A DNA stretch of 64,000 bases from Escherichia coli (GTDB lineage Bacteria > Pseudomonadota > Gammaproteobacteria > Enterobacterales > Enterobacteriaceae): NCBI RefSeq assembly GCF_029227855.1, contig NZ_CP074356.1; one strand, written 5' to 3'. The notes under the pieces were generated by a model that saw only the letters and a program-made list of their open reading frames with translations, was not told the DNA's origin and did not search any database. This document shows, in pieces, positions 3,073-28,127 of this stretch. The position numbers were made by a program, and so were the translations under genes. The first letter of the stretch is position 1. Every line of letters begins with the position of its first letter.

Positions 3073-3236
3073 ACTTTTTCGTTGCTTTCGGTTTGTTTGA
3101 TATCCCGTGGCAACGGCGGCATATATTACTGATTTCAGACTTGAGCGCAACAAAAATTTCGATGTAGATCACTCAACTGCTTATGATTCGCACGACACGA
3201 CCAGAAATAATGCGACTTCTGGTCGTGTGTTATGCA

Positions 3237-6018: not shown

Positions 6019-7329
6019 TTACGGTTTGAAGTCCAATGGCGCGTTTTTGAACACTTCATATACTGCCTGGCTTGGTGGTTTCGGGATCTTCGCAAGTTTA
6101 GCTGCTGCCAACGCAGCCTGACAAAGTGCGGGATCGCCACCTTCAGGTTTGATATCCAGTAACATACCATCGGGTGCCAGTTTTATGCGCAGCGTACAGG
6201 TTTTGCCTGCATAGGACGATGCGTCATAGAACTTACTTTCGATAGCAGATTTAATCTGCCCGGCATAGTTATTGATATCGGCCCCTGATGCGCCATTGTT
6301 TTTAGTATTACCACTCCCGGCAGGCGAAGCATTGTTCCCTTTCGCCCCTCCCCCCGTTTTCGGTGCATTCTTACCAGAGCTTAGCTCACCGAAAATATCA
6401 TCTGCCTCTGCGGCAGCTTTTGCTGCAGCGGCTTTTTCAGCTGCTGCTTTTGCAGCTGCTGCTTTTGCAGCTGCCGCTTTTTTGTCTGCGGCGGCTTTTT
6501 CTGCCGCTGCTTTCTTATCAGCTGCTGCCTTTTCAGCAGCTGCCTTTTCAGCAGCTGCCTTTTCAGCAGCCGCTTTTTCTGCTGCTTTTTTGTCGGCTGC
6601 AGCTTTCTCTGCTGCCACTTTCTTATCAGCTGCAGCCTTTTCAGCAGCCGCTTTCTTCTCAGCTTCTGCCTTGGCTTTTTCAGCAGCTTCAGTTGCCGCT
6701 TTCTTTCTTGCTTCAGCTGCAGCTGCTTCTGCCGCTTCCGCTTTCTTCTTCAGTGCCGCAGCGGCTGCCTCGGCTTTTTTCTGCGCTTCGGCTGCGGCTT
6801 TGGCGGCTTCTGCTTCTGCTTTTTTCTTCGCGTCTGCAGCCGCTTTCTTCGCAGCTTCTTCCGCAGCTTTAGCATCCGCTTCAGCCTTCGCTTTAGCATC
6901 TTCCGCCGCTTTCGCTGCCGCTTCTTCCGCTTGCTTCTGCTTTAACTCGGCCTGTTTTGCGGCTTCTTCAGCCTGCTTTTTCTGTTCCTGAGCAGCTAAC
7001 CGCTCTTTCTCAAGTTGCTTCAGGCGTTCCTGTTCAGCCGCTTGTTTCTCACGCAGTTCTTCAGCAGCCTGCTGTTCCTTCATCTTGCGCTGCTCATCAG
7101 AACGCTTCGCGCTTGATTCCTGGCTTTGCATGCGTTTGTACTGCTCAACTACCGCACCTGAATCAACCATGACAGCGTCGATGGATGAACCACCGCCGCC
7201 TCCGGCTGAAGCTTCTATATTCTCATCGAACGAACTCCAGATCAGCGCCGCAAATAAGATGACATGCAGCACTGCTGAAATAATTATCGCCCGCTTGAGC
7301 TTGTCGTTTTGTTCGGTTGCCTTTGACAC
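6019..7329 (-). CDS. tolA: Tol-Pal system protein TolA
   Basis: N-terminal TM anchor, long Ala/Lys/Glu-rich helical domain II, globular C-terminal domain III; 436 aa here. Confidence 0.95.
   Translation of the reverse strand: MSKATEQNDKLKRAIIISAVLHVILFAALIWSSFDENIEASAGGGGGSSIDAVMVDSGAVVEQYKRMQSQESSAKRSDEQRKMKEQQAAEELREKQAAEQERLKQLEKERLAAQEQKKQAEEAAKQAELKQKQAEEAAAKAAEDAKAKAEADAKAAEEAAKKAAADAKKKAEAEAAKAAAEAQKKAEAAAAALKKKAEAAEAAAAEARKKAATEAAEKAKAEAEKKAAAEKAAADKKVAAEKAAADKKAAEKAAAEKAAAEKAAAEKAAADKKAAAEKAAADKKAAAAKAAAAKAAAEKAAAAKAAAEADDIFGELSSGKNAPKTGGGAKGNNASPAGSGNTKNNGASGADINNYAGQIKSAIESKFYDASSYAGKTCTLRIKLAPDGMLLDIKPEGGDPALCQAALAAAKLAKIPKPPSQAVYEVFKNAPLDFKP
6400..6960 (-). repeat. Degenerate tandem repeats encoding the Ala/Lys/Glu-rich TolA domain II
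   Basis: Reiterated gcagc(t/c)gc...ttttcagc units visible on the plus strand, encoding (K/E)AAAEKAAAD-type repeats. Confidence 0.7.
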
Positions 7330-7825: not shown

Positions 7826-8919
<1,094 letters not shown>

Positions 8920-13018: not shown

Positions 13019-13963
13019 ATGAGTCCTGATAATATCAGTTCTGCTGTCAATCGCTTCTCAGGTTGGCCATCTAATGATCCTCTAAAAACAGATAAAGAAT
13101 CAATGACATCACCCATGACTGTGCAGGTAATAAAGATGATTGCCGCCATCCTTGACCCACATCGGATAGTCGTTGGAATCGATACACTTTATACAACGCA
13201 GCGCGAAACATTTACCTCAGAGAGTCAACAGCTCATTGAATCAGCATTGCAAACACTTCATGTGATGAATTTAAATAACCTGGAAACAAATCTCGATGAG
13301 GAAGGTCACTATCTGGCTTTTGGATATAACGTTGACACTCCTGACAGAATAACCGTTTCTGCTTATAATGAAAAAAAGCCTGGCTGCTATGGCCAATGTC
13401 TTTTAATACAGGATGACGAAACAGACTTATTTAACCTGATAAAAGTTAAAATTTTTGAAGCCAGGCATAATTATGTCGCTCAATTGATGAGCGATCCGGA
13501 ATTTATGTTCAAATTTAGTTATAGCGCTCAACAAAATAGATTAGAACCTCATCTTCTGGTTCCCACTTATTTCCCTCTAAAAACAAACGAACCGGTTACG
13601 CAAGAGGATGTACTGTTACTTTATCGTTTCTTTAAAATGGATGGTGATTTTAATATATTAACATCAGATGAATACATGAGTATCATGACACCTCTAATGA
13701 AGTGTGAGCGTAGCATCCACGACCACAACAGGTATGTGACGGGCAAAGATACCCTTCTTCTGGACTATCCTCCTTCTGGTAACCAGATATATTTCCATAT
13801 TTTTCCTGACGAATCAGCAACACTAGTCCTTTATTTTTCAAACAATGACATTGAATGTTTCGTCTTTGAAAGAGATATTCCGAGCCAGTATCGCTTTTTC
13901 AAAATGTTTACCAATCTGGCACTGGTTATTGATCAGTTAACCGATGCCAATCAAATACTTTAA
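13019..13963 (+). CDS. Hypothetical protein, AT-rich, no recognisable family
   Basis: 314 aa ORF, soluble, no motif I can recognise; codon usage and base composition unlike flanking core genes. Confidence 0.6.
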   Translation: MSPDNISSAVNRFSGWPSNDPLKTDKESMTSPMTVQVIKMIAAILDPHRIVVGIDTLYTTQRETFTSESQQLIESALQTLHVMNLNNLETNLDEEGHYLAFGYNVDTPDRITVSAYNEKKPGCYGQCLLIQDDETDLFNLIKVKIFEARHNYVAQLMSDPEFMFKFSYSAQQNRLEPHLLVPTYFPLKTNEPVTQEDVLLLYRFFKMDGDFNILTSDEYMSIMTPLMKCERSIHDHNRYVTGKDTLLLDYPPSGNQIYFHIFPDESATLVLYFSNNDIECFVFERDIPSQYRFFKMFTNLALVIDQLTDANQIL

Positions 13964-14043
13964 TTTTTATATATTCCCTGTGGCAAATATTGCTAAACAA
14001 TGCCCGGGGATTAATTTTTATTACTCACGGAAAGATTTAAATA

Positions 14044-14466
14044 ATGATCCCATCTCAAATCTCTTTCAACACCCTTCCTGTCAATGCAACATACGCTTCA
14101 GAGACAACAGTTGACACACAAAAATTCTCTGACATCCTCTACTCAGCGGGGTGTTCCCTAAAGGATCTGGCTTATTTGAGCAGATGTCTGGCATCAATAC
14201 ATCCGACTATCGCCAAAAACATTTATGAAACAGAAAATCTCAGCGATCAAAAATTACTACATATTGATTGCCGTAGTACAAATGAAATCAAGATAAATAT
14301 CTTTTTTGGTCGACAACGAGAAGGATTAATTGAAATTAGTTCTGACACAGTCATTTTTTCGATACTGTCTTCATTGATTGACTCCACCATTTCTAAATTT
14401 CAACACCAAAACCCCGTTAACGGTTCTGTAAATCCTGACCTATTGTATGAGGATTATACTGATTAA
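14044..14466 (+). CDS. Hypothetical protein, AT-rich, no recognisable family
   Basis: 140 aa ORF 80 bp downstream of the 314 aa ORF, same strand; likely co-transcribed. Confidence 0.55.
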   Translation: MIPSQISFNTLPVNATYASETTVDTQKFSDILYSAGCSLKDLAYLSRCLASIHPTIAKNIYETENLSDQKLLHIDCRSTNEIKINIFFGRQREGLIEISSDTVIFSILSSLIDSTISKFQHQNPVNGSVNPDLLYEDYTD

Positions 14467-15013: not shown

Positions 15014-15463
15014 ATGAAGAAAGCAACACTTGTGATTGGCGTTATTGGCGCGGACTGCCATGCAGTAGGCAATAAAGTTCTGGACCGCGTTTTTAGCAAC
15101 CATGGCTTCAGAGTCATTAATCTGGGCGTAATGGTCAGCCAGGACGAATATATTGATGCTGCCATTGAAACTGGTGCTGACGCGATTGTCGTCTCCTCTA
15201 TCTATGGGCATGGCGATATCGACTGTCTGGACATGCGCGAACGCTGCATCGAGCGTGGACTGGGGGACATCCTGCTCTATGTGGGCGGTAACCTGGTGGT
15301 CGGAAAACATGACTTCGCTGACGTGGAAACCAAATTCAAAGAGATGGGATTTGATCGCGTCTTTGCCCCAAGTCATGACTTAGAAGATGTTTGTCAGCTG
15401 ATGGCCCACGATATCAACCAACGTCATGACGTTGATACTCGTATTCTTGAAGAGGCAATCTGA
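15014..15463 (+). CDS. glmS: Glutamate mutase sigma (S) subunit, B12-binding
   Basis: [21 protein letters not shown]: the DxHxxG cobalamin-binding motif of methylaspartate mutase S; AGGA RBS 7 nt upstream; start chosen at internal ATG of the track ORF. Symbol follows clostridial glutamate mutase usage, not glucosamine-6-P synthase. Confidence 0.85.
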
Positions 15464-16851
15464 TGCAAATCGTCTCTGTCGATATTGGATCGACGTGGAC
15501 CAAAGCAGCCCTCTTCGCCCGGGAGGGGGACGCGTTAACGTTGGTTAACCACGTACTGACCCCAACCACCCCCCATCATCTGGCGAAGGGGTTTTTCTCC
15601 AGTCTGAACCTGGTGTTAAACGTAGATGATGCCCTCCCCCTGTTTAACAGCGGTGAGGTTGCATTGAAGTATTCCTCCTCTGCCAAAGGTGGGCTGGCGG
15701 TTGCCGCAATGGGATTGGTGCCTTCTATCACCCTGGAAACCGCGAAAGTAACCGCTCACTCTGCGGGGGCTAAAATTGCGCAATATTACGCCTACAAGCT
15801 GAACCGCCGTGATATCCAGGCACTGGAAGAAACGCAGCCCGATATTCTCTTGTTCACCGGCGGCACCGACGGCGGAGAAGAAAGCTACGGCCTGAATAAC
15901 GCCCGTGTGCTGGCAGAATCCAAACTCGACTGCGCCATTATTTATGCCGGAAACCGGGATATTCAGGACAAGGTGCAGGAGATCCTAGGGCATAAAGACC
16001 TGACCATCGTCGACAACGTTCTGCCCGATCTTGACCATCCGAACCCTTTAGCTGCACGCCAGGCTATCTGCGACATATTCCTTAAACGCATCGTTAAAGG
16101 GAAAGGGCTGGATGTCGTTGTTGATAAAACAGGCGAAGAACCAATGCCGACACCGTGGACAGTCTTTGAACTGGTTAAGGCAATCAGTAATGTCGATCAC
16201 AGCTGGAAAGAGTTCATGCTGATCGACATGGGCGGCGCAACCACCGATGTCTATTCCGCCTGTGCCAACACGCTCTCGCCCGACACCGTTTTACACGGCG
16301 TACCGGAACCCTTCGTGAAACGGACGGTGGAAGGCGATCTGGGAATGCGCGTCTCGGCAATGGTGGTTGGTGAAAGTGCGAAAGAGTTAGTCAATGTGAA
16401 TTTTGCTCAGCAACCCGCACAGCTGGACGCTTTTTATCATTACCTCCGTCATCTAGTCGCTCATCCCGACTACTTACCCGCGAATTCAGAAGAAAAATAT
16501 TTCGATACCGTCCTGGCCGGACTGTGTGTGGGTTATGCCACCGAAAGACATGCGGGCACCAAAAAAGAGGTCTGCACCTGCGTCGGCAATGTCGATTTAC
16601 AGATGGGACGTGACCTGACAACCGTGCGTAAAGTCGTCGGATCCGGCGGATGGCTCTCGCGTGCCAGTCAGTTCGATATGCATCACTGGTTGAAATACCG
16701 CAAGTTAAACGACGACGGTAAACGCATTCTCTTACCGACCGAATTTGAATATTACCGCGATTCCCGGGGGCTATTACCATTGCTGGCAAACGTCGCCAGA
16801 GTCGATCCGCTGGCCGCCGCGCGCACCAGTATTCAATGCTTAACCCTATAA
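15463..16851 (+). CDS. glmL: Glutamate mutase L component (MutL/GlmL reactivase-like protein)
   Basis: 462 aa ORF between S and E subunits as in clostridial operons; ATGA overlap with the S subunit. Confidence 0.75.
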   Translation: MQIVSVDIGSTWTKAALFAREGDALTLVNHVLTPTTPHHLAKGFFSSLNLVLNVDDALPLFNSGEVALKYSSSAKGGLAVAAMGLVPSITLETAKVTAHSAGAKIAQYYAYKLNRRDIQALEETQPDILLFTGGTDGGEESYGLNNARVLAESKLDCAIIYAGNRDIQDKVQEILGHKDLTIVDNVLPDLDHPNPLAARQAICDIFLKRIVKGKGLDVVVDKTGEEPMPTPWTVFELVKAISNVDHSWKEFMLIDMGGATTDVYSACANTLSPDTVLHGVPEPFVKRTVEGDLGMRVSAMVVGESAKELVNVNFAQQPAQLDAFYHYLRHLVAHPDYLPANSEEKYFDTVLAGLCVGYATERHAGTKKEVCTCVGNVDLQMGRDLTTVRKVVGSGGWLSRASQFDMHHWLKYRKLNDDGKRILLPTEFEYYRDSRGLLPLLANVARVDPLAAARTSIQCLTL

Positions 16852-16869
16852 CAATTAAGGCTGCAATCA

Positions 16870-18315
16870 ATGGAACTTCGAAATAAGAAATTAACCCATG
16901 ACGAATTCATGACCGAGCGGCAACAGGTACTGAAAACCTGGGAAACCGGCAAGGATGTTGAAAACTTTGAAGATGGCGTTAAATACCAACAAACCATTCC
17001 TGAGCATAAACGCTTCTCTCTTGCGCTGTTGAAAGCAGACAAGGAAGGTAAAACCCTTAGCCAACCGCGCGCAGGTGTGGCGCTGATGGACGAACACATC
17101 GAACTACTGAAAACACTACAAGAAGAGTGCGATCTGCTGCCGAGCACTATCGATGCATATACCCGTCTGAATCGGTACGAAGAAGCGGCTGTAGGGATTA
17201 AAAAATCCATCGAAGCCGGAACCTCTAAACTGAACGGTTTGCCGGTAGTTAACCATGGCGTCGCAGCTTGCCGTCGCCTCACCGAAACCCTGCAAAAACC
17301 GCTACAGATCCGCCACGGCACGCCAGATGCGCGTCTGCTGGCTGAAATCTCGATGTCCAGCGGCTTTACCAGTTACGAAGGCGGCGGCATTTCCTACAAC
17401 ATTCCGTATGCCAAACGCGTAACGCTGGAAAAATCGATCCGCGACTGGCAGTACTGCGACCGTTTAATGGGGATGTATGAAGAACACGGGATCCGCATCA
17501 ACCGCGAACCGTTTGGCCCACTAACAGGTACGCTGATCCCGCCGTTTATCTCGCACTCTATCGCGATAATCGAAGGCTTGCTGGCGCTGGAACAGGGTGT
17601 GAAATCTATCACCGTTGGTTATGGACAGGTCGGCAGCCTGACGCAGGATGTTGCGGCGATCCAGTCTCTGCGTGAACTTGCACACGAATATTTTCAGAGC
17701 TATGGCTATACCGACTATGAATTAAGTACCGTGTTTCACCAGTGGATGGGCGGCTTTCCGGAAGACGAATCGAAAGCGTTCGCTATTATCTCCTGGGGCG
17801 CAGCCGTCGCGGGGATGTCTGGTGCCACCAAAGTCATCACCAAAAGCCCGCACGAAGCCTGGGGTATCCCGACTGCCGCTGCCAACATTCAGGGGCTGAA
17901 AGCCTCCCGCCAGATGCTCAACATGGTCAACGAGCAGAAATTCCCGCCGTGCCCTGCGGTTGAACTGGAAATTGAACTGATTAAGAGCGAGGTTCGCGCG
18001 GTACTGAATAAAGTGTTCGAACTGGGTAATGGTGATATTGCGCGCGGTACGGTGCTGGCATTTGAAGCGGGCGTACTGGATGTGCCGTTTGCGCCAGCCG
18101 CCTGCAACGCGGGCAAAATTCTTCCGGTCCGTGACAACACCGGCGCGATACGCGTACTGGAAGCCGGAGCCGTTCCATTGCCAAAAGATATTCTCGACCT
18201 CCACCACGATTACGTTGCTGAACGCGCACGCTTTGAAGGACGCCAACCGACATTCCAGATGGTTGTAGATGACATCAATGCTGTATCCCACAGTAAATTA
18301 ATAGGAAGACCATAA
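16870..18315 (+). CDS. glmE: Glutamate mutase epsilon (E) catalytic subunit
   Basis: 481 aa, size and gene order match methylaspartate mutase E. Confidence 0.8.
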   Translation: MELRNKKLTHDEFMTERQQVLKTWETGKDVENFEDGVKYQQTIPEHKRFSLALLKADKEGKTLSQPRAGVALMDEHIELLKTLQEECDLLPSTIDAYTRLNRYEEAAVGIKKSIEAGTSKLNGLPVVNHGVAACRRLTETLQKPLQIRHGTPDARLLAEISMSSGFTSYEGGGISYNIPYAKRVTLEKSIRDWQYCDRLMGMYEEHGIRINREPFGPLTGTLIPPFISHSIAIIEGLLALEQGVKSITVGYGQVGSLTQDVAAIQSLRELAHEYFQSYGYTDYELSTVFHQWMGGFPEDESKAFAIISWGAAVAGMSGATKVITKSPHEAWGIPTAAANIQGLKASRQMLNMVNEQKFPPCPAVELEIELIKSEVRAVLNKVFELGNGDIARGTVLAFEAGVLDVPFAPAACNAGKILPVRDNTGAIRVLEAGAVPLPKDILDLHHDYVAERARFEGRQPTFQMVVDDINAVSHSKLIGRP

Positions 18316-19556
18316 TGAAAATAAAACAGGCCCTTTTTACCGCTGGCTACTCCTCATTCTATTTCGATGACCAGCAGGCGATAAAAAACGGAGCGGGTCA
18401 CGACGGTTTTTTTTATACCGGGGAGCCAGTAACACAGGGGTTTAACGCCGTACGTCAGGCCGGGGAGTGCGTATCGGTACAGTTGATTCTGGAAAACGGC
18501 GCGGTCGCCGTAGGTGACTGTGCTGCCGTACAGTATTCCGGGGCAGGCGGTCGCGATCCACTGTTCCTCGCGGAGCACTTTATTCCGTTCCTCAACGACC
18601 ATATCAAGCCATTACTGGTAGGCCGCGATGTGGATGTTTTCCTGCCGAATGCCCGTTTCTTCGACAAATTGCGTATTGACGGCAACTTGCTGCATACCGC
18701 CGTGCGCTACGGATTATCACAGGCTCTGCTTGATGCTACCGCGCTGGCAACCGGCCGTCTGAAAACTGAAGTGATCTGTGATGAATGGCAGTTGCCACGC
18801 GTGGCGGAATCCATTCCATTATTTGGTCAGAGCGGGGACGATCGATATATCGCCGTCGATAAGATGATCCTTAAGGGCATCGACGTGCTGCCCCATGCGC
18901 TGATTAATAACGTCGAAGAGAAGCTGGGCTTTAAAGGTGAAAAACTGCGCGAATATGTCCGCTGGTTGTCGGATCGCATTCTGAGCAAGCGCACCAGCGC
19001 ACGCTACCACCCAATCCTGCACATCGATGTATACGGCACTATCGGTCTGATCTTCGATATGGATCCGCTTCGCTGTGCGCAATACATCGCCAGCCTGGAA
19101 AAAGAAGCGCAAGGCCTGCCGCTCTACATTGAAGGGCCGGTCGATGCCGGTAACAAGCCCGATCAAATTCGCCTGCTGACCGCGATTACCAAAGAGCTGA
19201 CGCGCCTCGGTTCCGGCGTGAAACTAGTGGCCGATGAATGGTGTAACACCTACCAGGATATTGTTGATTTCACAGATGCCGCCAGTTGCCACATGGTGCA
19301 AATCAAAACCCCGGATCTGGGCAGTATTCACAACATCGTCGATGCAGTTCTTTATTGCAACAGCCACAGCATGGAAGCGTACCAGGGCGGCACCTGCAAT
19401 GAAACTGATGTCAGTGCCCGCACCTGTGTCCACGTCGCCCTTGCCGCTCGCCCCATGCGTATGCTGGTAAAACCAGGGATGGGCTTTGACGAAGGCCTCG
19501 ATATCGTCTTCAACGAAATGAATCGTACTATCGCGCTGTTGCAGGCTAAGGATTAA
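18315..19556 (+). CDS. mal: Methylaspartate ammonia-lyase (beta-methylaspartase)
   Basis: 413 aa; N-terminus MKIKQALFTAGYSSFYFDDQQAIKNGAGHDGF matches the enolase-superfamily methylaspartase N-terminus; start overlaps the glmE stop. Confidence 0.85.
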   Translation: MKIKQALFTAGYSSFYFDDQQAIKNGAGHDGFFYTGEPVTQGFNAVRQAGECVSVQLILENGAVAVGDCAAVQYSGAGGRDPLFLAEHFIPFLNDHIKPLLVGRDVDVFLPNARFFDKLRIDGNLLHTAVRYGLSQALLDATALATGRLKTEVICDEWQLPRVAESIPLFGQSGDDRYIAVDKMILKGIDVLPHALINNVEEKLGFKGEKLREYVRWLSDRILSKRTSARYHPILHIDVYGTIGLIFDMDPLRCAQYIASLEKEAQGLPLYIEGPVDAGNKPDQIRLLTAITKELTRLGSGVKLVADEWCNTYQDIVDFTDAASCHMVQIKTPDLGSIHNIVDAVLYCNSHSMEAYQGGTCNETDVSARTCVHVALAARPMRMLVKPGMGFDEGLDIVFNEMNRTIALLQAKD

Positions 19557-19559
19557 CAA

Positions 19560-20930
19560 ATGGCTCGTTCTTTTAAAGTCTTATCGCCAACGGCAATCCT
19601 CGGGTATGGATTCCCGGAAGAGAGCTTCCGCAAAGCGATGGCAGAATCGCCCGATCTGATCGCCGTTGATGCAGGCTCTTCCGATCCTGGCCCCCACTAC
19701 CTCGGGGCGGGCAAACCGTTTACCGATCGCGCAGGGGTCAAGCGCGATCTGCGCTATATGATCACCGCAGGCGTGCAAAATAATATACCGGTGGTGATCG
19801 GAACGGCCGGCGGTTCTGGTGCCGCTCCACACCTGGAGTGGTGCCGAGAAATAATTCATGAGATTGCCCGGGAAGAGCACCTCTCGTTCTCGATGGCGTT
19901 GATCCCGGCAGACGTTGACAAAGCCATCGTCCACCAGGCGCTGGATAACGGCAAAATCACGGCGCTGGAGTTTGTCCCGCCGTTAACCCACGACGCGATT
20001 GACGAAAGTACGTATATCGTTGCGCAAATGGGCATCGAACCCTTCCAGCGGGCGCTGAAAGAAGGCGCGCAAGTGGTGCCGGGCGGGCGCGCTTACGACC
20101 CGGCCTGCTTTGCTGCGCTTCCGATCATGCAAGGCTTTGATGAAGGTCTGGCGCTTCATTGTGGGAAAATCCTTGAATGCGCGGCAATCGCCGCAACGCC
20201 CGGCTCAGGCTCTGACTGTGCGATGGGCATCATTGATGACAACGGCTTTACGCTGAAGACATTTAATCCGAAGCGTAAATTTACCGAAACGTCAGCAGCT
20301 GCACACACACTGTATGAGAAATCCGATCCCTACTTCCTGCCTGGACCTGGCGGCGTGTTGAACCTGAAAGGCTGCACATTTAAAGCGGTCAATGACAGCG
20401 AAGTGTACGTCAGCGGTTCTAAGCATGAAGAAACGCCGTATTCCCTGAAACTGGAAGGTGCGCGACGGGTGGGCTTCCGCTGTCTGACCATCGCAGGAAC
20501 GCGCGACCCGATCATGATCGCCGGGATCGATAAAATCATCGATGAAGTCAAAACCAGCGTTTCGCGTAACCTGTCGCTCGACGATGACAGCATTCACATC
20601 AATTTCCACCTGTACGGCAAAAACGGGGTGATGGGCGACCATGAACCGATGCAAACTGCCGGGCATGAGCTGGGGATTGTCCTAGATGTAGTTGCGCCGA
20701 CCCAGGAAATTGCCAACAGCGTTTGCTCGCTGGTGCGCTCTACTATGCTGCACTACGGCTATGAAAACCGCATCGCTACCGCAGGCAACCTGGCGTTCCC
20801 GTTCTCCCCTTCTGATATCCAGGGCGGGCCGGTATACGAATTTTCCATATATCACCTGATTGAAGCCAACGACGCTCTGCGTTTTGATTTCCATATTGAA
20901 CAGGTGACGCCAGAAGGAGTTCAGGCATGA
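19560..20930 (+). CDS. Conserved protein of unknown function (possibly DUF1446/AtuA-like)
   Basis: 456 aa, starts 4 nt after mal; family assignment is from memory of N-terminal pattern only. Confidence 0.5.
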   Translation: MARSFKVLSPTAILGYGFPEESFRKAMAESPDLIAVDAGSSDPGPHYLGAGKPFTDRAGVKRDLRYMITAGVQNNIPVVIGTAGGSGAAPHLEWCREIIHEIAREEHLSFSMALIPADVDKAIVHQALDNGKITALEFVPPLTHDAIDESTYIVAQMGIEPFQRALKEGAQVVPGGRAYDPACFAALPIMQGFDEGLALHCGKILECAAIAATPGSGSDCAMGIIDDNGFTLKTFNPKRKFTETSAAAHTLYEKSDPYFLPGPGGVLNLKGCTFKAVNDSEVYVSGSKHEETPYSLKLEGARRVGFRCLTIAGTRDPIMIAGIDKIIDEVKTSVSRNLSLDDDSIHINFHLYGKNGVMGDHEPMQTAGHELGIVLDVVAPTQEIANSVCSLVRSTMLHYGYENRIATAGNLAFPFSPSDIQGGPVYEFSIYHLIEANDALRFDFHIEQVTPEGVQA

Positions 20931-21244
20931 AACAGTCAATTGTCTCACTGGCGCAAGTCATTCGTTCGAAAAATGCCGGACCTTACGAACTGGTTTTAGA
21001 TATTTTATTTAAAACGAAAGAAAACTATGAGCGAGTTAAATCATCAGGGCAATTAACCCCAGAACTGATTGCGCGCTTATATCATGTTGAACCTGACTTT
21101 ATTCACCGTATTGTCTGGTTTGATCCTTCTAACGCAGTAAAAATCGTCATGCCACGAGATATTATCTCCGGGAATGTAGGTGACAATGATGTCTATGGTG
21201 CACAGCAACATGCACCTTTATTAAATATGAGTTTCGATTTGTAA
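20927..21244 (+). CDS. Small conserved protein of unknown function (possibly DUF4387-like partner)
   Basis: 105 aa, ATGA overlap with the preceding gene. Confidence 0.5.
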   Translation: MKQSIVSLAQVIRSKNAGPYELVLDILFKTKENYERVKSSGQLTPELIARLYHVEPDFIHRIVWFDPSNAVKIVMPRDIISGNVGDNDVYGAQQHAPLLNMSFDL

Positions 21245-21327
21245 AAATCCGAATACTTTTAGCCAACTGACATCCCGTCACTTATTGCAGTTCAACACTT
21301 CAGCTATTTGTAAGGTTGTAATAGCAG

Positions 21328-21359
21328 GTAGATGCCTGAATCTCTATTCAGGCATCTAC
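21328..21359 (+). terminator. Perfect 14 bp inverted repeat; candidate terminator or operator between operon and transporter gene
   Basis: GTAGATGCCTGAAT-ctct-ATTCAGGCATCTAC followed by T-rich ttctcctgattctgattt. Confidence 0.55.
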
Positions 21360-21404
21360 TTCTCCTGATTCTGATTTATCGCCGTGCACCTGATGGAGGA
21401 AAAA

Positions 21405-22685
21405 ATGAAGAAAATAAGTTTAACCACGATGATTCTTTTGGCGCTGGTACTTGGAATGATTATCGGCGTAGTGCTCAATAACACTGCTTCACCGGAAACC
21501 GCAAAACTCTATGCGCAAGAAATATCGATATTCACGACGATTTTCTTACGACTGATAAAAATGATTATCGCTCCGTTAGTGGTCTCTACCCTGGTGGTAG
21601 GTATAGCTAAAATGGGCGATGCCAAAGCCCTTGGTCGTATTTTTTCTAAAACACTCTTTTTATTTATTTGCGCCTCATTGCTGTCAATTGCCTTAGGCTT
21701 GATAACAGTAAATTTCTTCATGCCAGGCACAGGAATTAATTTTGTTGCACACGGAGCCGAAACCACCGGAGTGGTCGCGTCAGAACCCTTTACGCTAAAA
21801 GTATTTATTTCGCATGCTTTCCCCACCAGCATTGTCGATGCCATGGCGCACAATGAAATTTTGCAAATCGTGGTGTTCTCAATTTTCCTCGGCTGTAGCC
21901 TGACGGCGATTGGCGAGAAAGGCAGCGCCATCGTTCACGCCTTAGATTCGCTGGCACATGCCATGTTAAAGCTCACTGGCTACGTCATGCTCTTCGCTCC
22001 CCTGACCGTATTCGCTGCTATTTCAGCATTGATTGCTGAACGAGGACTGGCAGTTATGGTGAGCGCCGGGATCTTTATGGGTGAATTTTATTTCACCATG
22101 TTATTACTTTGGGTGCTGCTTATCGGTCTGGCCATCGTTTATGTTGGCCCCTGCATCAGACGCCTGACCCGCGCCCTTTCGGAACCCGCCCTGCTGGCAT
22201 TTACCACATCCAGTTCTGAAGCGGCTTTTCCGGGAACGCTTGAAAAACTGGAGCAATTTGGCGTTTCCCCAAAAATTGCCAGTTTTGTCTTACCCATTGG
22301 CTACTCATTTAATCTCGTTGGATCAATGGCCTACTGCTCCTTCGCCACAGTTTTCATCGCCCAGGCCTGCAATATCCATTTATCCATCGGTGAGCAAATC
22401 ACCATGCTGTTGATCCTGATGTTGACCTCGAAAGGAATGGCTGGCGTACCACGCGCCTCAATGGTGGTTATCGCCGCCACGCTCAACCAGTTCAATATTC
22501 CGGAAGCGGGGCTGATCTTGCTGATGGGCGTTGATCCGTTCCTTGATATGGGGCGTTCAGCGACAAACGTCATGAGCAACGCAATGGGCGCTGCGATGGT
22601 GAGTCGGTGGGAAGGCGAACATTTCGGCGAGGGCTGTCGGGGTAAAGCATTAAAACCCAATGAATCGAACGTTGCTCTGCCCTGA
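21405..22685 (+). CDS. Dicarboxylate/amino acid:cation symporter (GltP/DctA family), probable glutamate uptake
   Basis: About 426 aa polytopic protein; GGAGGA RBS 5 nt upstream of ATG 21405 (track ORF starts at an upstream GTG). Confidence 0.8.
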   Translation: MKKISLTTMILLALVLGMIIGVVLNNTASPETAKLYAQEISIFTTIFLRLIKMIIAPLVVSTLVVGIAKMGDAKALGRIFSKTLFLFICASLLSIALGLITVNFFMPGTGINFVAHGAETTGVVASEPFTLKVFISHAFPTSIVDAMAHNEILQIVVFSIFLGCSLTAIGEKGSAIVHALDSLAHAMLKLTGYVMLFAPLTVFAAISALIAERGLAVMVSAGIFMGEFYFTMLLLWVLLIGLAIVYVGPCIRRLTRALSEPALLAFTTSSSEAAFPGTLEKLEQFGVSPKIASFVLPIGYSFNLVGSMAYCSFATVFIAQACNIHLSIGEQITMLLILMLTSKGMAGVPRASMVVIAATLNQFNIPEAGLILLMGVDPFLDMGRSATNVMSNAMGAAMVSRWEGEHFGEGCRGKALKPNESNVALP

Positions 22686-22792
22686 GGGGGATCTTAAGCA
22701 ATCAGAAGCCAATGACTACGCATTTTTATAAGCCGGATCATGAAGTTAGACGGCAATTAAGTAAAACTAACGTTTAAGGTGAAAAGTGAAAT

Positions 22793-24445
22793 ATGTCCAA
22801 ACCATTTATCTGGCAAGAACCGTTTCTACAAAATAAAGACGGTACAGAATATACATTAATTAGCGATCAACATATTACAGTAACGGAATTAGACGGCGAA
22901 GAAGTAATAAAAATCGCTCCTGAAGCATTAACGCTGCTTGCCCGGCAGGCATTTTATGAAGCCTCTTTTTTCTTACGTTCCGCTCATTTGCAACAGGTCG
23001 CCAGCATTCTTAACGATCCGCAGGCCAGTAGTAATGATAAATACGTTGCGTTGCAGTTATTACGTAATGCTGAAGTCTCAGCAAAAGGGGTATTACCCAA
23101 CTGTCAGGATACCGGCACCGCAACTATTGTTGCCAGTAAAGGGCAACAGATATGGACGGGAGGTAACGACGCTGAAGCCTTAAGCAAAGGCATTTACACC
23201 ACTTTTCAGGAAAATAATCTGCGCTTTTCACAAAATGCGCCACTGGATATGTTTACCGAAGTCAATACGCAAACCAATCTCCCGGCGCAGATTGATATCA
23301 GCGCCGTCGCTGGTGATGAGTACCATTTTCTCTGTATTAATAAAGGGGGCGGCTCTGCCAATAAAGCCGCGCTTTATCAGGAAACCAAATCCCTATTGCA
23401 ACCAGAAAAACTGACCGCATTTTTAATCGAAAAAATGAAATCGCTGGGCACCGCTGCCTGCCCGCCTTACCACATCGCCTTTGTCGTCGGAGGACTTTCA
23501 GCCGATCAAACCTTAAAAGTTGCCAAGCTGGCCTCAACGAAATATTACGACAATTTGCCCACCAGCGGAAACGAGCAAGGACAAGCATTCCGTGATATTG
23601 AGCTGGAAAAAGTATTGCTCGAGGCCAGTCAGCAATTTGGTATTGGTGCGCAATTTGGGGGTAAATATTTCGCTCATGATATTCGCGTCATTCGTCTGCC
23701 GCGTCACGGTGGCTCTTGCCCGATAGCTATGGCGCTCTCCTGTTCTGCGGATCGCAATATCAAAGCAAAAATTAACAAGCACGGTATCTGGCTGGAAAAA
23801 CTCGAACACAATCCGGGGCAATATATTCCAGCCTCACTGCGGGAAGAAAATCACGCGCAACATGTACAGCTGGATCTAAACCGTCCGTTGCGTGACGTGA
23901 TGCAGGATCTCGCCAGATTACCGGTAGGCACCCGCGTGTCGTTAAGTGGTCCCATCGTAGTGGCGCGCGATATCGCCCACGCCAAAATAAAAGCGCGGCT
24001 GGATAGCGGCGAACCGATGCCGGATTACCTGAAGCATCATATTGTCTATTACGCTGGCCCGGCGAAAACACCGGAGAACATGGCCTGCGGTTCACTGGGT
24101 CCAACCACGGGCGGTCGAATGGACGGTTATGTCGATACCTTCCAGGCGGTTGGCGGCAGTCTGGTGATGTTATCGAAAGGTCACCGCAGCCAGCAGGTCA
24201 CCGATGCCTGTCACAAACATGGCGGCTTCAATCTGGGAAGTATTGGCGGTGCAGCTGCGTTACTGGCGCAAGAATATGTCAAAAGTCTGCGTTGCCTGGA
24301 ATACCCGGAGCTGGGTATGGAAGCGGTGTGGATGATGGAAGTGGAAAATCTGCCCGCATTCATCCTGGTAGATGATAAAGGCAATAATTTCTTTAGTCAG
24401 TTTGAGCAGCAACACCGCTGCGCCAGTTGCCCTGCGGGACATTAA
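22793..24445 (+). CDS. fumD: Class I (Fe-S) fumarate hydratase family enzyme, probable mesaconase
   Basis: 550 aa; N-terminus closely parallels FumA ([31 protein letters not shown]); linkage to glutamate mutase/methylaspartase as described for the E. coli O157:H7 mesaconase FumD. Confidence 0.8.
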
Positions 24446-24454
24446 GGAAAATGA

Positions 24455-25057
24455 ATGGAAGCGCGAATTTCAACTGAACGGCATGTGCAGCGCCAGCAGA
24501 AATTGAAGGAACAGGTCGATACGCGCATCGCGGCGGCGATAGAGAAAAAAGGGATTTTGATTGTTTTCACCGGCAATGGCAAAGGGAAATCCACTGCCGC
24601 GTTTGGTACTGTGACGCGCGCGGTGGGTCATGGCAAAACGGTGGGGGTTGCGCAGTACATCAAGGGGCAATGGGACAACGGCGAATACAACCTTCTCCAG
24701 CCGCTGGGGGTTGAGTTTCATATTATGGGAACCGGTTTTACCTGGGAGACACAGAACCGGCAAGCGGATATCGACGCGGCGAAAGAGGTCTGGTCGGAAA
24801 GCAAACGGATGCTGGCTGACAAGCGTTACGACTTAGTGGTGCTTGATGAGCTGACCTATATGCTGGCTTACCATTATCTGGATACCGAAGAAGTGATCGC
24901 TTCTCTGCAAAACCGCCCGGCACAACAAAGTGTCATTGTCACCGGACGCGGTTGCCACAGTCAGATATTAAAAATGGCGGATACGGTCAGCGAAATCCGC
25001 CCCGTCAAACATGCTTTTGATAACGGCATTCAGGCGCAGCCGGGTATCGACTGGTAA
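24455..25057 (+). CDS. ATP:cob(I)alamin adenosyltransferase (CobA/BtuR paralog)
   Basis: 200 aa; GILIVFTGNGKGKSTAAFG P-loop and strong collinearity with E. coli BtuR. Confidence 0.85.
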   Translation: MEARISTERHVQRQQKLKEQVDTRIAAAIEKKGILIVFTGNGKGKSTAAFGTVTRAVGHGKTVGVAQYIKGQWDNGEYNLLQPLGVEFHIMGTGFTWETQNRQADIDAAKEVWSESKRMLADKRYDLVVLDELTYMLAYHYLDTEEVIASLQNRPAQQSVIVTGRGCHSQILKMADTVSEIRPVKHAFDNGIQAQPGIDW

Positions 25058-25060
25058 TAA

Positions 25061-25093
25061 CTGCGCCTGGCATCCCGCCAGGCGCAGGTTTTA
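25061..25093. terminator. Bidirectional terminator hairpin between convergent cobA-like and LysR genes
   Basis: CTGCGCCTGGC-atccc-GCCAGGCGCAG then gtttta. Confidence 0.6.
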
Positions 25094-25996
25094 CATCTCC
25101 TGCGGTACAACCGATTTCGCCAGCAACCATTCACGAAATTGCTGCAAGTGCGGTGAGTCAGACTTCTCTTCCTGCCACGTCATAATAAAACGATTACCGG
25201 TACGAATAGGCACATCACAGGGGATCACCATATCGCCACTATCCAAATCATGTTGAATAGCGAAACGTGGTAACAGCGCCACGCCGAGATTAGAGCGCAC
25301 GGCGGCAATCAGCATTGAAAGCAAATCGAAACGTGGTCCGTTGTTGACCAGTGGACTGCTAACGCCAGATAAAGCAAACCACTCTTCCCAGCCAGTAATA
25401 CGGGTGCTTTGATGCAGAAGTGGTAACTCAGTAAGCAGTTCTGCCACTGACAGTTTTTGATCGGACATTGCAAGCAAACTGCCGCTGCATACCGGCAAAA
25501 TCTCCTCATCAAAGAGATATTCTACTTCCGCCCAGGGCGCGCAAAAATTTTCGCGCATAATGACAGCATCGTACTCCCGATTAAGAAAATCGCCGTTATT
25601 AGCTAAAGAGTGAATATTAACAATAATATCGGGATGTAACTTTGTGAATTCATGTAAATTTGGGATTAACCAGTGGGTACTAAACGTAGGATTCACGGCA
25701 AGTTCAATAACCTGAACCGTAGGCTGCCAGGTCATAATAGTATTGGTATCGCGTTCCAGCTTATTTAATGTTTCTTTTACTATCCCCAGGTAATACTTCC
25801 CTGCATCATTAAGAAAAATACGTTTTTTAGAGTGTGAAAATAACGGAGTATGTAAAAATTCCTCCAGCGCACTCACTTGTCTGAATACAGCACTTTGGGT
25901 TAACGCTAACTCCTCTGCCGCTCTGGTATAACTTTCATAACGTGCGACGACCTCAAAAGTCACCAGCAGCTCCGTTTTAGGTATTTTTCCTCGCAT
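25091..25996 (-). CDS. LysR-family transcriptional regulator
   Basis: N-terminal HTH (TRAAEELALTQSAVFRQVSALE) and LysR substrate-binding domain; start at ATG 25996 with RBS; divergent from the RtcB-like gene. Confidence 0.85.
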   Translation of the reverse strand: MRGKIPKTELLVTFEVVARYESYTRAAEELALTQSAVFRQVSALEEFLHTPLFSHSKKRIFLNDAGKYYLGIVKETLNKLERDTNTIMTWQPTVQVIELAVNPTFSTHWLIPNLHEFTKLHPDIIVNIHSLANNGDFLNREYDAVIMRENFCAPWAEVEYLFDEEILPVCSGSLLAMSDQKLSVAELLTELPLLHQSTRITGWEEWFALSGVSSPLVNNGPRFDLLSMLIAAVRSNLGVALLPRFAIQHDLDSGDMVIPCDVPIRTGNRFIMTWQEEKSDSPHLQQFREWLLAKSVVPQEM

Positions 25997-26585
25997 AATT
26001 CCGTCCGTGAAAAAATAACAATTCAAAAATTATTTTATAAAAAACAGTAGCACTAATGAATATCATAATTCAAATAAACAAACCAGTCAGCTATATGTCT
26101 AACCAGGAAAATAAAGTGACAATAATCCTAAAACAGGAATTTCACCTCAGTTATCCGCATGCAATACTTTAAAGCTATTATTGCAAGAATATTATTCATA
26201 TACATGAATATACTCTAAATAAGTCAAGTTGCAGGAAGGGAACAAATAATGAATTTCCAGAAGCTTACATAAGTAAGTGACCTGAGTGAGCGAACATCGA
26301 TGCAGCACATGCAACTTGAATTATGACAAGTATACAATGATAAATTTATATACCCTATGTTATATATTATCTATGTCCGGTTAAATTGAATGAGTCATGG
26401 CCTTAAAAGACTTCACAAAAGATAATTCCTCTTTAACAATAAGCCAGATTTACCACTTGTAAAACTTGCTATCGCCACATACACTACGCGCGTTTTCTTT
26501 CCCTTTTGCTGGCTGCTGACCGGAAAGACAAAATTACCCTCGCAATACAGGGGGTTGTTTAACGTCTATATTTCAGGACAGCGTT

Positions 26586-27983
26586 ATGCATCATCTTTCA
26601 AGGCTTGATAAAGCCTTTCTGCGCAAAGGGATCCAACTTTCCCGCGCCAACAATATTGTTTCATTATCTCGTCCATCAGGTGCCAGTGCCCGCGTACTGC
26701 TGCCGGACGAACTGCCGCTGGAAGAAAAAGCAGTAACACAACTGCTTGATTTTGCAGAAGTGAAGCTACCAGACCACCCAGGTTATGTGCGCCAGACGTG
26801 CGCGACGCCAGATTTTCATCCCGGCAATGGCGTCCCCGTTGGCGCGGTGGTGGCCTCAACGCCGGATTTAGTCATTCCCGCCGCCATCGGCACCGATATT
26901 TCTTGTGGCATGCGGCTGCTGACGACCGGATTAACACTTGAGCAAGCCGAAGCGCATAAAGACATCATCGCTCAGCGGTTAACGCAAGTGCTGCTGCAAA
27001 ATGAGCGCGATGTTCCGTTATCCGCACAGGCGTTCACTGCGCTTTTTGATGGCGGACCGGCAGATTGCGTGTCGACCTTGCCATCAGCAGGTCTCTGGAC
27101 ACGCACGAATATCCCCCGAATGGTACAAGAGATTGACTGCTGCATTGGGCTTAACGAGCATAACAGTCATTCGCGTTATGCCCCACCCGCCCTGCTGGCA
27201 ACGGACCGCGCATTACTCCGCGATCCTTGTCTGGGTACGCCGGGTTCAGGTAATCATTTTATTGAACTTCAGGTCGTTGATAGCGTGGTTGATCGCCATG
27301 TAGCCTGGCAACAAGGGCTGAAAACAGGCGATATTGTGGTGATGATCCACAGTGGATCGCGAGATGTTGGCTTTTACGTCGGAAGACGCTGGATGGATCG
27401 CGCCCGTGCTGAATGGCCCACCGGACATAAACATCCACAAAGCGGGTTATATGGTCTGGCAGGCGGACTGGCGGAGGAATATCTACAAGCGATAGGAATG
27501 GCTGCGCGTTACGCGTGGTTAAATCGCGTCACAATTGCCGAAATGGTGCGCGTATGTCTCGCCAATCTCTTTCATCAGGACAATTCGCATCTGGTGGTGG
27601 ATGTGCCGCATAACATCATCCTTCGCGAGCATGAAATGAATATTCATCGCAAAGGTGCAACACCGGCACGAGTGGGCGATCTGGCATTAATCCCCGGTTC
27701 AATGGGCGATTATTCGTGGCTTGCAGTCGGTTGCGGCAACCCGGAGTGGCTGTGGTCATGCAGTCACGGAGCAGGACGCAGCCAGCGTCGACAGGCCATG
27801 CGCTCAAGCGCGACTGAAGAGTCAACGCTGCCGTGGCAATGCGTCACATTGCGTGAAGAACGACGTCTTGAAGAAGCGCCAGCGGCTTATAAAGATATTG
27901 GTCCGGTTATCGAAGCCCAACAAGAAGCCGGATTAATTCAACCAGCGGTCAGATTTCGACCGTGGTTAACGTTTAAGGGGTAA
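26586..27983 (+). CDS. RtcB-family RNA ligase paralog (stand-alone)
   Basis: 465 aa with RtcB signature blocks DISCGMRL, GSGNHFIE, MIHSGSRDVG, HRKGATPARVGDLALIPGSMG, CSHGAGR, APAAYKDIGPV; all metal/GMP-binding Cys/His positions appear conserved. Confidence 0.8.
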   Translation: MHHLSRLDKAFLRKGIQLSRANNIVSLSRPSGASARVLLPDELPLEEKAVTQLLDFAEVKLPDHPGYVRQTCATPDFHPGNGVPVGAVVASTPDLVIPAAIGTDISCGMRLLTTGLTLEQAEAHKDIIAQRLTQVLLQNERDVPLSAQAFTALFDGGPADCVSTLPSAGLWTRTNIPRMVQEIDCCIGLNEHNSHSRYAPPALLATDRALLRDPCLGTPGSGNHFIELQVVDSVVDRHVAWQQGLKTGDIVVMIHSGSRDVGFYVGRRWMDRARAEWPTGHKHPQSGLYGLAGGLAEEYLQAIGMAARYAWLNRVTIAEMVRVCLANLFHQDNSHLVVDVPHNIILREHEMNIHRKGATPARVGDLALIPGSMGDYSWLAVGCGNPEWLWSCSHGAGRSQRRQAMRSSATEESTLPWQCVTLREERRLEEAPAAYKDIGPVIEAQQEAGLIQPAVRFRPWLTFKG

Positions 27984-28066
27984 CTGAAATGATAAATGGC
28001 CTGCGGTTCTCACGCAGGTCAAATCTGGTATCTGCGTAAGCTAACAAACTTGTTTATCAACAATCT

Positions 28067-28088
28067 CAGGCCATCCGAAGATGGCCTG
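28067..28088. terminator. Hairpin between convergent RtcB-like gene and mngB
   Basis: CAGGCCATC-cgaa-GATGGCCTG, 9 bp stem. Confidence 0.5.
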
Positions 28089-28127
28089 AAATTATTGCCC
28101 CCCTTAGATACACTTTTAGCGCAATAA

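Follow-up and report, generated by a model that had tools for sequence, protein, structure and literature searches.

Within a 64,000-nucleotide stretch of Escherichia coli chromosome (the window, 100% identical to strain JNEC-KY178) lies an accessory gene for an RtcB-family ligase of 465 residues, here called the rtcB paralog. We put at about 0.62 the probability that it forms a self-contained cassette, in which the gene has a promoter of its own and a structured 5′ leader RNA would hold translation off until a signal arrives, independently of RtcR, of sigma-54 and of the LysR-type regulator encoded next to it. The enzyme itself appears to be a further member of a known family, and what appears to be new is the unit that it forms with its leader. 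The first-pass annotation of the window had recognized the ligase gene and its divergent neighbor; it overlooked what is conserved along with the gene, namely its own promoter and structured leader RNA.

The protein matches the Pfam RtcB family (PF01139) with E = 1.1e-94, its residues 63–465 aligning to positions 7–426 of the 426-position model. Compared with P. horikoshii RtcB and the canonical E. coli K-12 enzyme, all catalytic blocks are kept: PDFH (D76, H78), GTDISCG (D104, C107), GSGNHF (N223, H224), HSGSR (H255), VPHNI (H342) and SHGAGR, which contains the GMP acceptor H394. Residues D104, C107, H224, H255, H342 and H394 correspond to D95, C98, H203, H234, H329 and H404 of the P. horikoshii enzyme, and the residues of the blocks are invariant in an alignment of 20 subfamily members. 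An AlphaFold (AF2) model built from 20 subfamily sequences reached a pLDDT of 88 and a pTM of 0.90, and Foldseek aligned it with P. horikoshii RtcB bound to GMP and Mn2+ (4dwq_A) at E = 2e-31 and a TM-score of 0.82. The first-pass annotation, working by eye, had credited the protein with all RtcB signature blocks and the active-site Cys and His; family match, alignments and fold bear this out, and in the alignment with E. coli RtcB every metal- and GMP-binding residue is present, the roles of these residues being taken from the literature. The paralog would accordingly act as a GTP- and Mn2+-dependent ligase that seals RNA ends carrying a 2′,3′-cyclic phosphate or 3′-phosphate to 5′-hydroxyl ends via His394-GMP.

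Judged by its sequence, the protein is neither a duplicate of rtcB nor RtcB2, since it shares 30% identity with K-12 RtcB, being 57 residues longer, and none of the four NCBIfam RtcB models scores it at or above the curated cutoff (203 bits against 407 for NF007153, and 167 against 271.8 for TIGR03073, the release-factor-H-coupled RtcB). The annotation's view of the gene as something other than a near-identical copy of canonical rtcB is thereby upheld. The characterized RtcBs are about equally distant from it, at 123–151 bits for the solved structures (phmmer) and 144 bits for K-12 RtcB (BLASTP). Orthologs of 462–470 residues and 55–67% identity are common in Beta- and Gammaproteobacteria, and the subfamily is encoded in at least 288 GTDB species. 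About 5% of E. coli carry the paralog, and 289 genomes have 80% or more of the coding segment that was queried (bases 1–1115). In the collections searched, plasmid carriage is essentially nil, with four records of which one is a mislabelled chromosome, and phages lack the gene. Three E. coli alleles translated in full are all uninterrupted, and between the three allele types dN/dS is 0.12–0.16 at dS of 0.13–0.17. The paralog is intact and, where intact, under purifying selection.

What accompanies the gene across genera is a leader of about 95 nucleotides (nt). A count of 9-mers in the 200 nt upstream of all loci found TGCTGCTGC in 17 genera, and alignment of the upstream regions on CTGCTG revealed an architecture common to the window and to 78 of the 80 loci fetched. 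Its elements follow in a set order: a −10-like hexamer, helix P1 7–14 nt later, the heptamer GCUGCUG in the P1 loop, helix P2 inside helix P3, a short tail and the start codon. The 5′ arm of P1 is pyrimidine-rich and the 3′ arm purine-rich (CUUUCCUG...CAGGAAAG and variants). Counting six further loci, the leader is seen in about 36 genera of Beta- and Gammaproteobacteria; of the two fetched loci that lack it directly upstream of rtcB, one is a Snodgrassella pseudogene. A covariance model was built from a hand-annotated seed of five sequences in two rounds of modelling. The refined model was run on both strands of 90 sources (1.35 Mb) and returned 78 matches at E ≤ 1, every one on the coding strand and ending at the start of rtcB; they include P. 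aeruginosa, Ralstonia, Pseudogulbenkiania and the enterobacterial relatives at 86% and 82% identity. No match fell in the canonical rtcBA locus of K-12. The window and the near-identical enterobacterial alleles (loci L002, L004, L009 and L010) fall below this cutoff and are not among the 78; with filters off, the best match on either strand of the 64-kb window is 26491–26588 (+), at 17 bits and E = 0.083.

Compensatory changes occur at all 21 modelled pairs, 7 of them in P1 and 14 in P2 and P3. Paired cells amount to 88.8%, as against 63.8% in shuffled controls (none of 500 reached the native value) and 43–62% when the 3′ partners were slid, and the covariation score is 0.63 versus 0.21. RNAalifold returned no structure from a plain MAFFT alignment of the leaders, because differing loop lengths shift the register there. 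Tests that use no alignment agree. Swapping P1 arms between genera lowers their complementarity, with 0 of 2000 permutations reaching the native mean; swapping loops and initiation regions likewise never reached the native duplex strength (0 of 2000); and the P2/P3 domain folds better than its dinucleotide shuffles in 35 of 35 genera (z < −2 in 29), the mean z-score being −3.15 over these genera and −3.18 for E. coli. The leader thus combines a fixed position between promoter and start codon with compensatory helices, the marks of a cis-regulatory structured leader, and the conserved regulatory device of this rtcB clade appears, from these comparisons, to be a cis-acting leader RNA.

The heptamer GCUGCUG is invariant in all 42 leaders aligned, which represent 34 genera. 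The complement of the loop stands right before the AUG in most Betaproteobacteria, as CAGCAGC(G/C), AGCAGCAA or CAGCAUCA, and the flanking positions compensate as well: CGCUGCUG goes with CAGCAGCG in Burkholderia, UGAUGCUG with CAGCAUCA in Comamonas and Diaphorobacter, and UUUGCUGCU with AGCAGCAAA in Chitinimonas and Uliginosibacterium. The partner in Gammaproteobacteria is GGUAGC or GGUGGC, which overlaps the Shine-Dalgarno (SD) sequence. In the minimum-energy fold of the E. coli leader, 26510–26521 (UGGCUGCUGACC) pairs with 26576–26586, covering the GG of the SD and the A of the AUG. Over the family, the loop forms a duplex of −12.3 kcal/mol with its native start region, compared with −8.0 kcal/mol for other ATG contexts of the same loci.

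A predicted sigma-70-type promoter precedes the leader (Table 1). In those E. coli genomes where a hut island, rather than the arrangement of the window, lies upstream, the allele keeps TTGTAT-17-TACACT although nothing further upstream resembles the window; the two contexts are homologous from 26478 (108 bp before the ATG) to 27978 only, and promoter plus leader are 99% identical. The inherited unit is therefore promoter, leader and gene, roughly 26457–27983. Across the family, 32 of 36 genera have a −10-like hexamer (at least four of six positions, with A2 and T6) that ends 7–14 nt before P1, and a good −35 box often accompanies it, as in P. aeruginosa (TTGACA-17-TAGAGT). No sigma-54 site (≤1 mismatch) was found in any of 81 subfamily upstream regions, which agrees with the annotation's placing of the gene outside the rtcBA/RtcR/sigma-54 scheme, and no LexA site was found in the spacer of the window or in the 81 orthologous upstream regions.

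From these features we propose the following course of events. The gene would be transcribed from its own predicted promoter, and its expression would be independent of RtcR and sigma-54 and, most likely, of the neighboring LysR protein. The leader would fold into P1, P2 and P3, and the GCUGCUG of the P1 loop would pair with the SD and start-codon region, keeping translation of rtcB off by default; occlusion of the initiation region by the heptamer loop is the most likely mechanism. A signal acting on the heptamer or on P1 might then free the initiation region, so that the ligase would be made when RNA is damaged.

Table 1. Coordinates of the rtcB cassette and of its surroundings in the window
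Feature	Position	Strand	Details
Structured 5′ leader RNA of the RtcB subfamily, ~95 nt	26491–26585	+	Covariance model
Helix P1	26496–26528	+	UCUUUCC 26496–26502 with GGAAAGA 26522–26528; 19-nt loop; RNAfold with heptamer unpaired
GCUGCUG heptamer in P1 loop	26512–26518	+	Invariant; complementary to translation initiation region
P2/P3 domain	26531–26560	+	P2 26536–26541 with 26550–26555; P3 core 26531–26534 with 26557–26560, enclosing P2
Translation initiation region	26575–26588	+	SD AGGA 26575–26578, AUG 26586–26588; predicted target of heptamer loop
RtcB-family 3′-phosphate/5′-hydroxyl nucleic acid ligase, 465 residues	26586–27983	+	Distinct proteobacterial subfamily; Pfam, alignments, fold, dN/dS
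Predicted sigma-70-type rtcB promoter	26457–26485	+	−35 TTGTAA 26457–26462, 17-nt spacer, −10 TACACT 26480–26485; read from sequence
AT-rich spacer, ~31% G+C	25997–26456	.	Arrangement-specific; elsewhere replaced by hut island and a different AT-rich stretch
LysR-family (GcvA-like) regulator, terminal gene of methylaspartate island	25091–25996	−	RefSeq, 301 residues
Methylaspartate (mesaconate) pathway island, glutamate fermentation	15014–25057	+	RefSeq annotation
FumD, class I fumarase/mesaconase	22793–24445	+	RefSeq annotation
cobO, second cob(I)alamin adenosyltransferase	24455–25057	+	RefSeq annotation

Several points weigh against this proposal. The alignment behind the covariation counts was itself fitted to the model, which is why alignment-free tests were added. 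The score of the leader model alone is weak evidence, for the model has low information content and membership is not assignable from scores: metagenome decoys chosen for a perfect P1 and heptamer reached 14–34 bits, and the E. coli leader, with 17 bits and a 19-nt P1 loop, is a divergent member. Because the decoys score so, the case for the leader rests on position and covariation. The decoys belong to a metagenome scan for TTCCTG-N4-9-GCTGCTGCAGGAA, which returned at least 120 stretches; among the matches listed, all were chance occurrences in coding sequence or terminators and none lay beside RtcB, a result that gives no measure of how exclusive the motif is to rtcB. Pairing between loop and start region is significant at the family level only, the per-genome percentile having a median of 0.11, and the invariance of the heptamer is beyond what pairing alone explains, so that something besides the start region probably reads it. 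In addition, about three quarters of the E. coli genomes with the neighboring methylaspartate island have lost the paralog, which is therefore dispensable. The canonical rtcBA-rtcR locus has some match in 5424 of 5426 complete E. coli genomes and at least 80% of its length in 4837; the 465-residue protein is therefore in all likelihood encoded by a paralog present in addition to rtcBA, an assignment based on the frequency of rtcBA across E. coli and not on this strain. Finally, our literature search found no expression or biochemical data for any member of the subfamily.

Among the alternatives, the one suggested by the first-pass annotation is that the divergent LysR-type regulator controls rtcB, which would tie RNA repair to a metabolite signal. 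The layout invites it: the two genes diverge from a shared 559-bp spacer in the classic LysR-type manner, and the LysR gene is oddly placed for regulating the methylaspartate operon too, since it converges with that operon at a distance of about 10 kb from the operon's start. The genomes compared tell otherwise. The LysR gene occurs in 1127 of the 5426 complete E. coli genomes and the rtcB paralog in 296, and they are adjacent as in the window in 138–144. In about half of the rtcB carriers a hut island of about 9 kb separates rtcB from the same LysR gene, yet rtcB retains its promoter, its leader and the signature of selection. Some 830 E. coli genomes keep LysR without RtcB, O157:H7 included; in O157:H7 and strain 746, where the LysR gene and the island are intact, all that survives of rtcB is remnants of 57 and 41 bp and a stretch in advanced decay. 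In Salmonella enterica a LysR ortholog (84–85% identity) ends the same island beside sucD, and that locus holds no trace of the rtcB paralog. Outside E. coli, the RtcB relatives at 86% and 82% identity adjoin hutU or sit between unrelated genes, the neighbors in P. aeruginosa, Burkholderia, Ralstonia and Pseudogulbenkiania are all different, and LysR-type genes occur near rtcB orthologs at background frequency (16 of 80 loci, 2% of open reading frames) in scattered positions and orientations; Pseudogulbenkiania has homologs of both genes at unlinked loci. Across the genomes compared, the two genes are thus not co-inherited as regulator and target. The pairing is an accident of island architecture and LysR is not part of the RtcB unit, and we consider control by it quite unlikely. 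What stands of the annotation's overall reading is a real, intact paralog outside the RtcR/sigma-54 scheme with a plausible place in RNA repair; regulation by LysR is not supported. A different doubt is that the gene in E. coli may be a decaying and currently functionless passenger of a hotspot. In favor of this, 95% of E. coli genomes lack it, it has left the remnants just mentioned, and it adjoins an AT-rich, probably silenced spacer; we nevertheless judge this unlikely in view of the 289 genomes that hold most of the queried segment, the uninterrupted alleles, the low dN/dS and the near identity of promoter and leader across two contexts. Nor need broken RNA be the main substrate, for the enzyme might cap DNA ends or RNA 5′-phosphate ends. 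Such capping is on record for RtcB3 of M. xanthus and for the E. coli enzyme acting on DNA 3′-phosphates; RtcB paralogs differ in these activities (review PMC10630183, citing Maughan & Shuman 2015), and the subfamily is about equally far from all characterized RtcBs. All residues of the ligase step are conserved, however, and the lineage-specific neighbors are RNA-repair genes, which leaves a main role in capping with a slim chance.

Other alternatives accept the upstream element and assign it a different action. Were P2 an intrinsic terminator, with the competition between P1 and an extended P3 deciding read-through, the leader would work by transcription attenuation and start-codon occlusion would not be the mechanism. 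A run of U follows P2 in Gilliamella, Snodgrassella, Xenorhabdus and Pectobacterium (e.g. GGGAGGAGCGCUUUUUUGUUUUUU), and two partners are open to the 3′ arm of P1 (GGAAAA), namely the 5′ arm and a downstream UUUUCC. But in these AT-rich genera the U-run is the 3′ strand of P3, no U-run directly follows P2 in the Burkholderia, Comamonas and Variovorax leaders or in E. coli, the extended P3 lengthens P2 and does not disrupt it, and the complementarity between heptamer and start region would be left unexplained; we regard attenuation as a minor, though not negligible, possibility. A DNA operator bound by a transcription factor is suggested by P1 itself, a 7-bp inverted repeat with a 13–19-bp spacer just downstream of the −10 box. 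Yet the half-sites vary and stay complementary (CUUUCC/GGAAAG, CCUUC/GAAGG, CCCUC/GAGGG, CCUCU/AGAGG), two more helices of unrelated sequence covary too, the element stands in a strand-specific relation to the start codon, and no regulator gene is co-inherited, so that an operator is very improbable. In a bolder extension of the preferred cassette, the leader itself would be the sensor of RNA damage and RNA repair would have a self-resetting feedback loop that needs no protein regulator. The exposed GCUGCUG might be cut by a sequence-specific ribotoxin, or titrated by unfolded rRNA fragments, either of which would free the ribosome-binding site, and the ligase could then reseal its own leader and so switch itself off. 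The heptamer contains two GCU triplets; GCU is the reported specificity of MqsR-type interferases, whose products carry the ends that RtcB joins, and the 530 loop of 16S rRNA carries a universal CAGCAGC. We consider this extension unlikely.

As to whether the leader has been seen before, Rfam 15 (4227 families) gave no match in the window region at E ≤ 1, and for the leaders of Burkholderia, Pectobacterium and Comamonas it gave sub-threshold chance matches only. Full-text literature yielded nothing on this RtcB clade or its leader; an earlier listing in the supplement of a 224-motif survey is possible. The leader RNA appears to be undescribed. Two other readings of the heptamer region were considered. 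An upstream open reading frame through the heptamer was rejected, for an NUG start is present in some genera only and neither frame nor stop is conserved; a self-cleaving ribozyme is unlikely, given seven invariant nucleotides only and no match to an Rfam ribozyme.

The neighborhoods of the subfamily were surveyed by all-against-all clustering of the open reading frames within 6 kb at the 80 fetched loci (36 genera). No protein partner is common across genera at this range, and an Archease gene is absent from the recurrent neighbors. Three lineages have neighborhoods that hint at RNA repair. In Gilliamella, rtcR (NF038308, 773 bits) immediately precedes the long-type rtcB and is itself divergent from a canonical rtcB of 408–417 residues with a sigma-54 site. 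In one such locus (L053, 4602–9398) the canonical rtcB (−), with its sigma-54 site TGGCACGCTTTTCGCA at 6068–6083, is followed by rtcR and then by the long-type rtcB, which has its own promoter and leader, so that two differently controlled RtcB systems adjoin; the layout is repeated in several other Gilliamella loci. In Janthinobacterium (L012, 5549–7698) and at one Gilliamella locus (L033, 5621–7627), rtcB is divergent from a pair comprising an Rnl-type RNA ligase (PF09414) and an HD+AAA_33 kinase-like gene. This pair looks like a cassette for end healing and sealing, and neither protein matched an NCBIfam or PADLOC model. In Pseudogulbenkiania rtcB follows a VgrG-Rhs toxin-immunity cluster; in P. 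ferrooxidans (L092, 1–7392) it comes directly after a type VI secretion VgrG, a 1535-residue Rhs toxin and a presumed immunity gene of 99 residues. The role in RNA repair that the first-pass annotation had envisaged fits these occasional neighbors, RtcR with canonical RtcB in one case and the Rnl-type ligase with the HD/kinase protein in another. PADLOC matched neither the RtcB paralog nor the LysR protein to a defense-system family.

Other loci show the gene in varied states. In Snodgrassella gandavensis (L072, 3228–9347) the leader stands at 3228–3323 and the RtcB match resumes at residue 18, position 8001, after an insertion of about 4.7 kb with an MFS transporter gene and a large gene that resembles, without a profile match, a conjugative-transfer ATPase; this copy is probably a pseudogene. 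An uncultured Comamonadaceae (L023, 374–3717) has a second RtcB-like open reading frame, of up to 542 residues by a crude finder, directly upstream of the long-type rtcB on the same strand, with a leader before the downstream copy only. In P. aeruginosa (L005, 5073–8510) rtcB sits between a methyltransferase gene that follows the nuo operon and a gene for an AI-2E-family transporter. The methyltransferase and transporter genes are probably adjacent in PAO1, and the rtcB cassette would then be strain-variable in P. aeruginosa too.

In the window itself the RefSeq gene order is cydABX, two hypothetical genes, the methylaspartate island, the LysR gene (−), the 559-bp spacer, rtcB (+), mngB-mngA-mngR and sucDCBA. 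The first-pass description of this setting holds. The LysR gene is adjacent and divergent, at the position given in Table 1; the annotation of the identical RefSeq record shows no rtcA, rtcR or prfH over ±20 kb; the upstream region put at 560 bp is a spacer of 559 bp (26027–26585) with 31% G+C in its distal 450 bp; and its plus strand holds no sigma-54 −24/−12 match even with up to three mismatches. The LysR open reading frame extends over 25091–26026 (−) from its first TTG, RefSeq placing the start at 25996, and its protein scores 219 bits with the NCBIfam GcvA subfamily, below the cutoff. The island comprises glmS, glmL, glmE, methylaspartate ammonia-lyase, an AtuA-family gene, a DUF4387 gene, a dicarboxylate symporter, FumD and cobO. 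It is the O157:H7-type cluster of Kronen & Berg 2015 (PMC4682846), who already included this LysR-type regulator when they drew the cluster for glutamate fermentation in enterobacteria, and it is complete here in a clinical non-O157 strain. A strong GC-rich hairpin of 11 pairs (25061–25087) lies between the convergent cobO and LysR genes; it scans as terminator-like on the plus strand only and could also serve the LysR gene. The whole cydA–sucD segment (about 12200–33700) is a hotspot for metabolic islands, where E. coli strains carry varying combinations of the methylaspartate island, the hut island (hutU, a permease, hutD, hutI, hutG and a HAL-family lyase), rtcB and mngRAB. Two hypothetical genes of 314 and 140 residues (13019–14466, +; RefSeq) at the left edge, between cydA and glmS, are also kept in the hut-context strain, and in E. 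coli elppa5 (NZ_CP083503.1) an IS200C element lies within the LysR–spacer–rtcB segment (the region matching 25000–28100). The rtcB remnants, between LysR and sucD, are unannotated: those of strain 746 (L003, 5947–6042) and O157:H7 (Z1830; L090, 5374–5470) match window positions 27710–27766 and 27938–27978, and strain 746 also has a decayed stretch matching RtcB residues 312–398 at 33% identity. The ancestor of the 746 and O157:H7 lineages had the rtcB paralog, which was lost through decay.

Nearly all that is known of RtcB in bacteria derives from the rtcBA operon under RtcR/sigma-54 control and, in recent years, from RtcB2-PrfH. The present gene belongs to a third RtcB clade, found in the at least 288 GTDB species counted above, among them P. 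aeruginosa, Burkholderia, Ralstonia, Pectobacterium and bee-gut symbionts, as well as in 5% of E. coli, and no characterized member of it was found in the literature searched. The only conserved partner of the clade is an RNA, a compact leader whose invariant heptamer is predicted to pair with the start region. This leader is a candidate for a cis-regulatory RNA class absent from Rfam, and it turns the induction of RNA repair without RtcR into a question that can be addressed experimentally. For island-rich hotspots in general, a divergent regulator is no evidence of regulation.

Comparison with known systems sharpens these points. With canonical E. coli RtcB the paralog shares the Pfam family, the fold and the metal, GTP and His-GMP residues, and presumably the chemistry; unlike rtcBA, however, it has no rtcA, RtcR or sigma-54 promoter but a predicted sigma-70-type promoter of its own, and the K-12 rtcBA locus lacks its structured leader. 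The long RtcBs of archaeal and eukaryal type (P. horikoshii, T. thermophilus, human RTCB) are similar in length and are the best structural matches (TM 0.75–0.82), although at 21–27% identity in the structural alignments, and they work with Archease, which has no counterpart among the paralog's recurrent neighbors. As for the leader, the SD is hidden by a hairpin-loop pseudoknot in SAM-II and preQ1-II riboswitches and in ribosomal-protein operators. The rtcB leader resembles them in its covarying helices and in a hairpin loop predicted to pair with the SD and AUG, and it differs in having seven invariant nucleotides only, too few for a typical metabolite pocket, and no Rfam match.

RtcB2-PrfH, the ribosome-repair module of some E. 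coli strains (PMC9304027, PMC9223846), likewise brings E. coli an accessory, strain-variable second RtcB and is thought to counter ribotoxins, whereas the paralog has no adjacent prfH, stays below the TIGR03073 cutoff and counts 465 residues against the 356 positions of that model. RtcR, through its CARF domain, senses damaged tRNA fragments (PMC7790460, PMC9650030) and is thus a dedicated device coupling RtcB production to RNA damage, the part proposed here for the leader; the two systems even stand side by side in Gilliamella. The difference lies in the means, for RtcR is a protein activator at a sigma-54 promoter, whereas the paralog, which has no co-inherited protein partner, would be governed by an RNA in cis.

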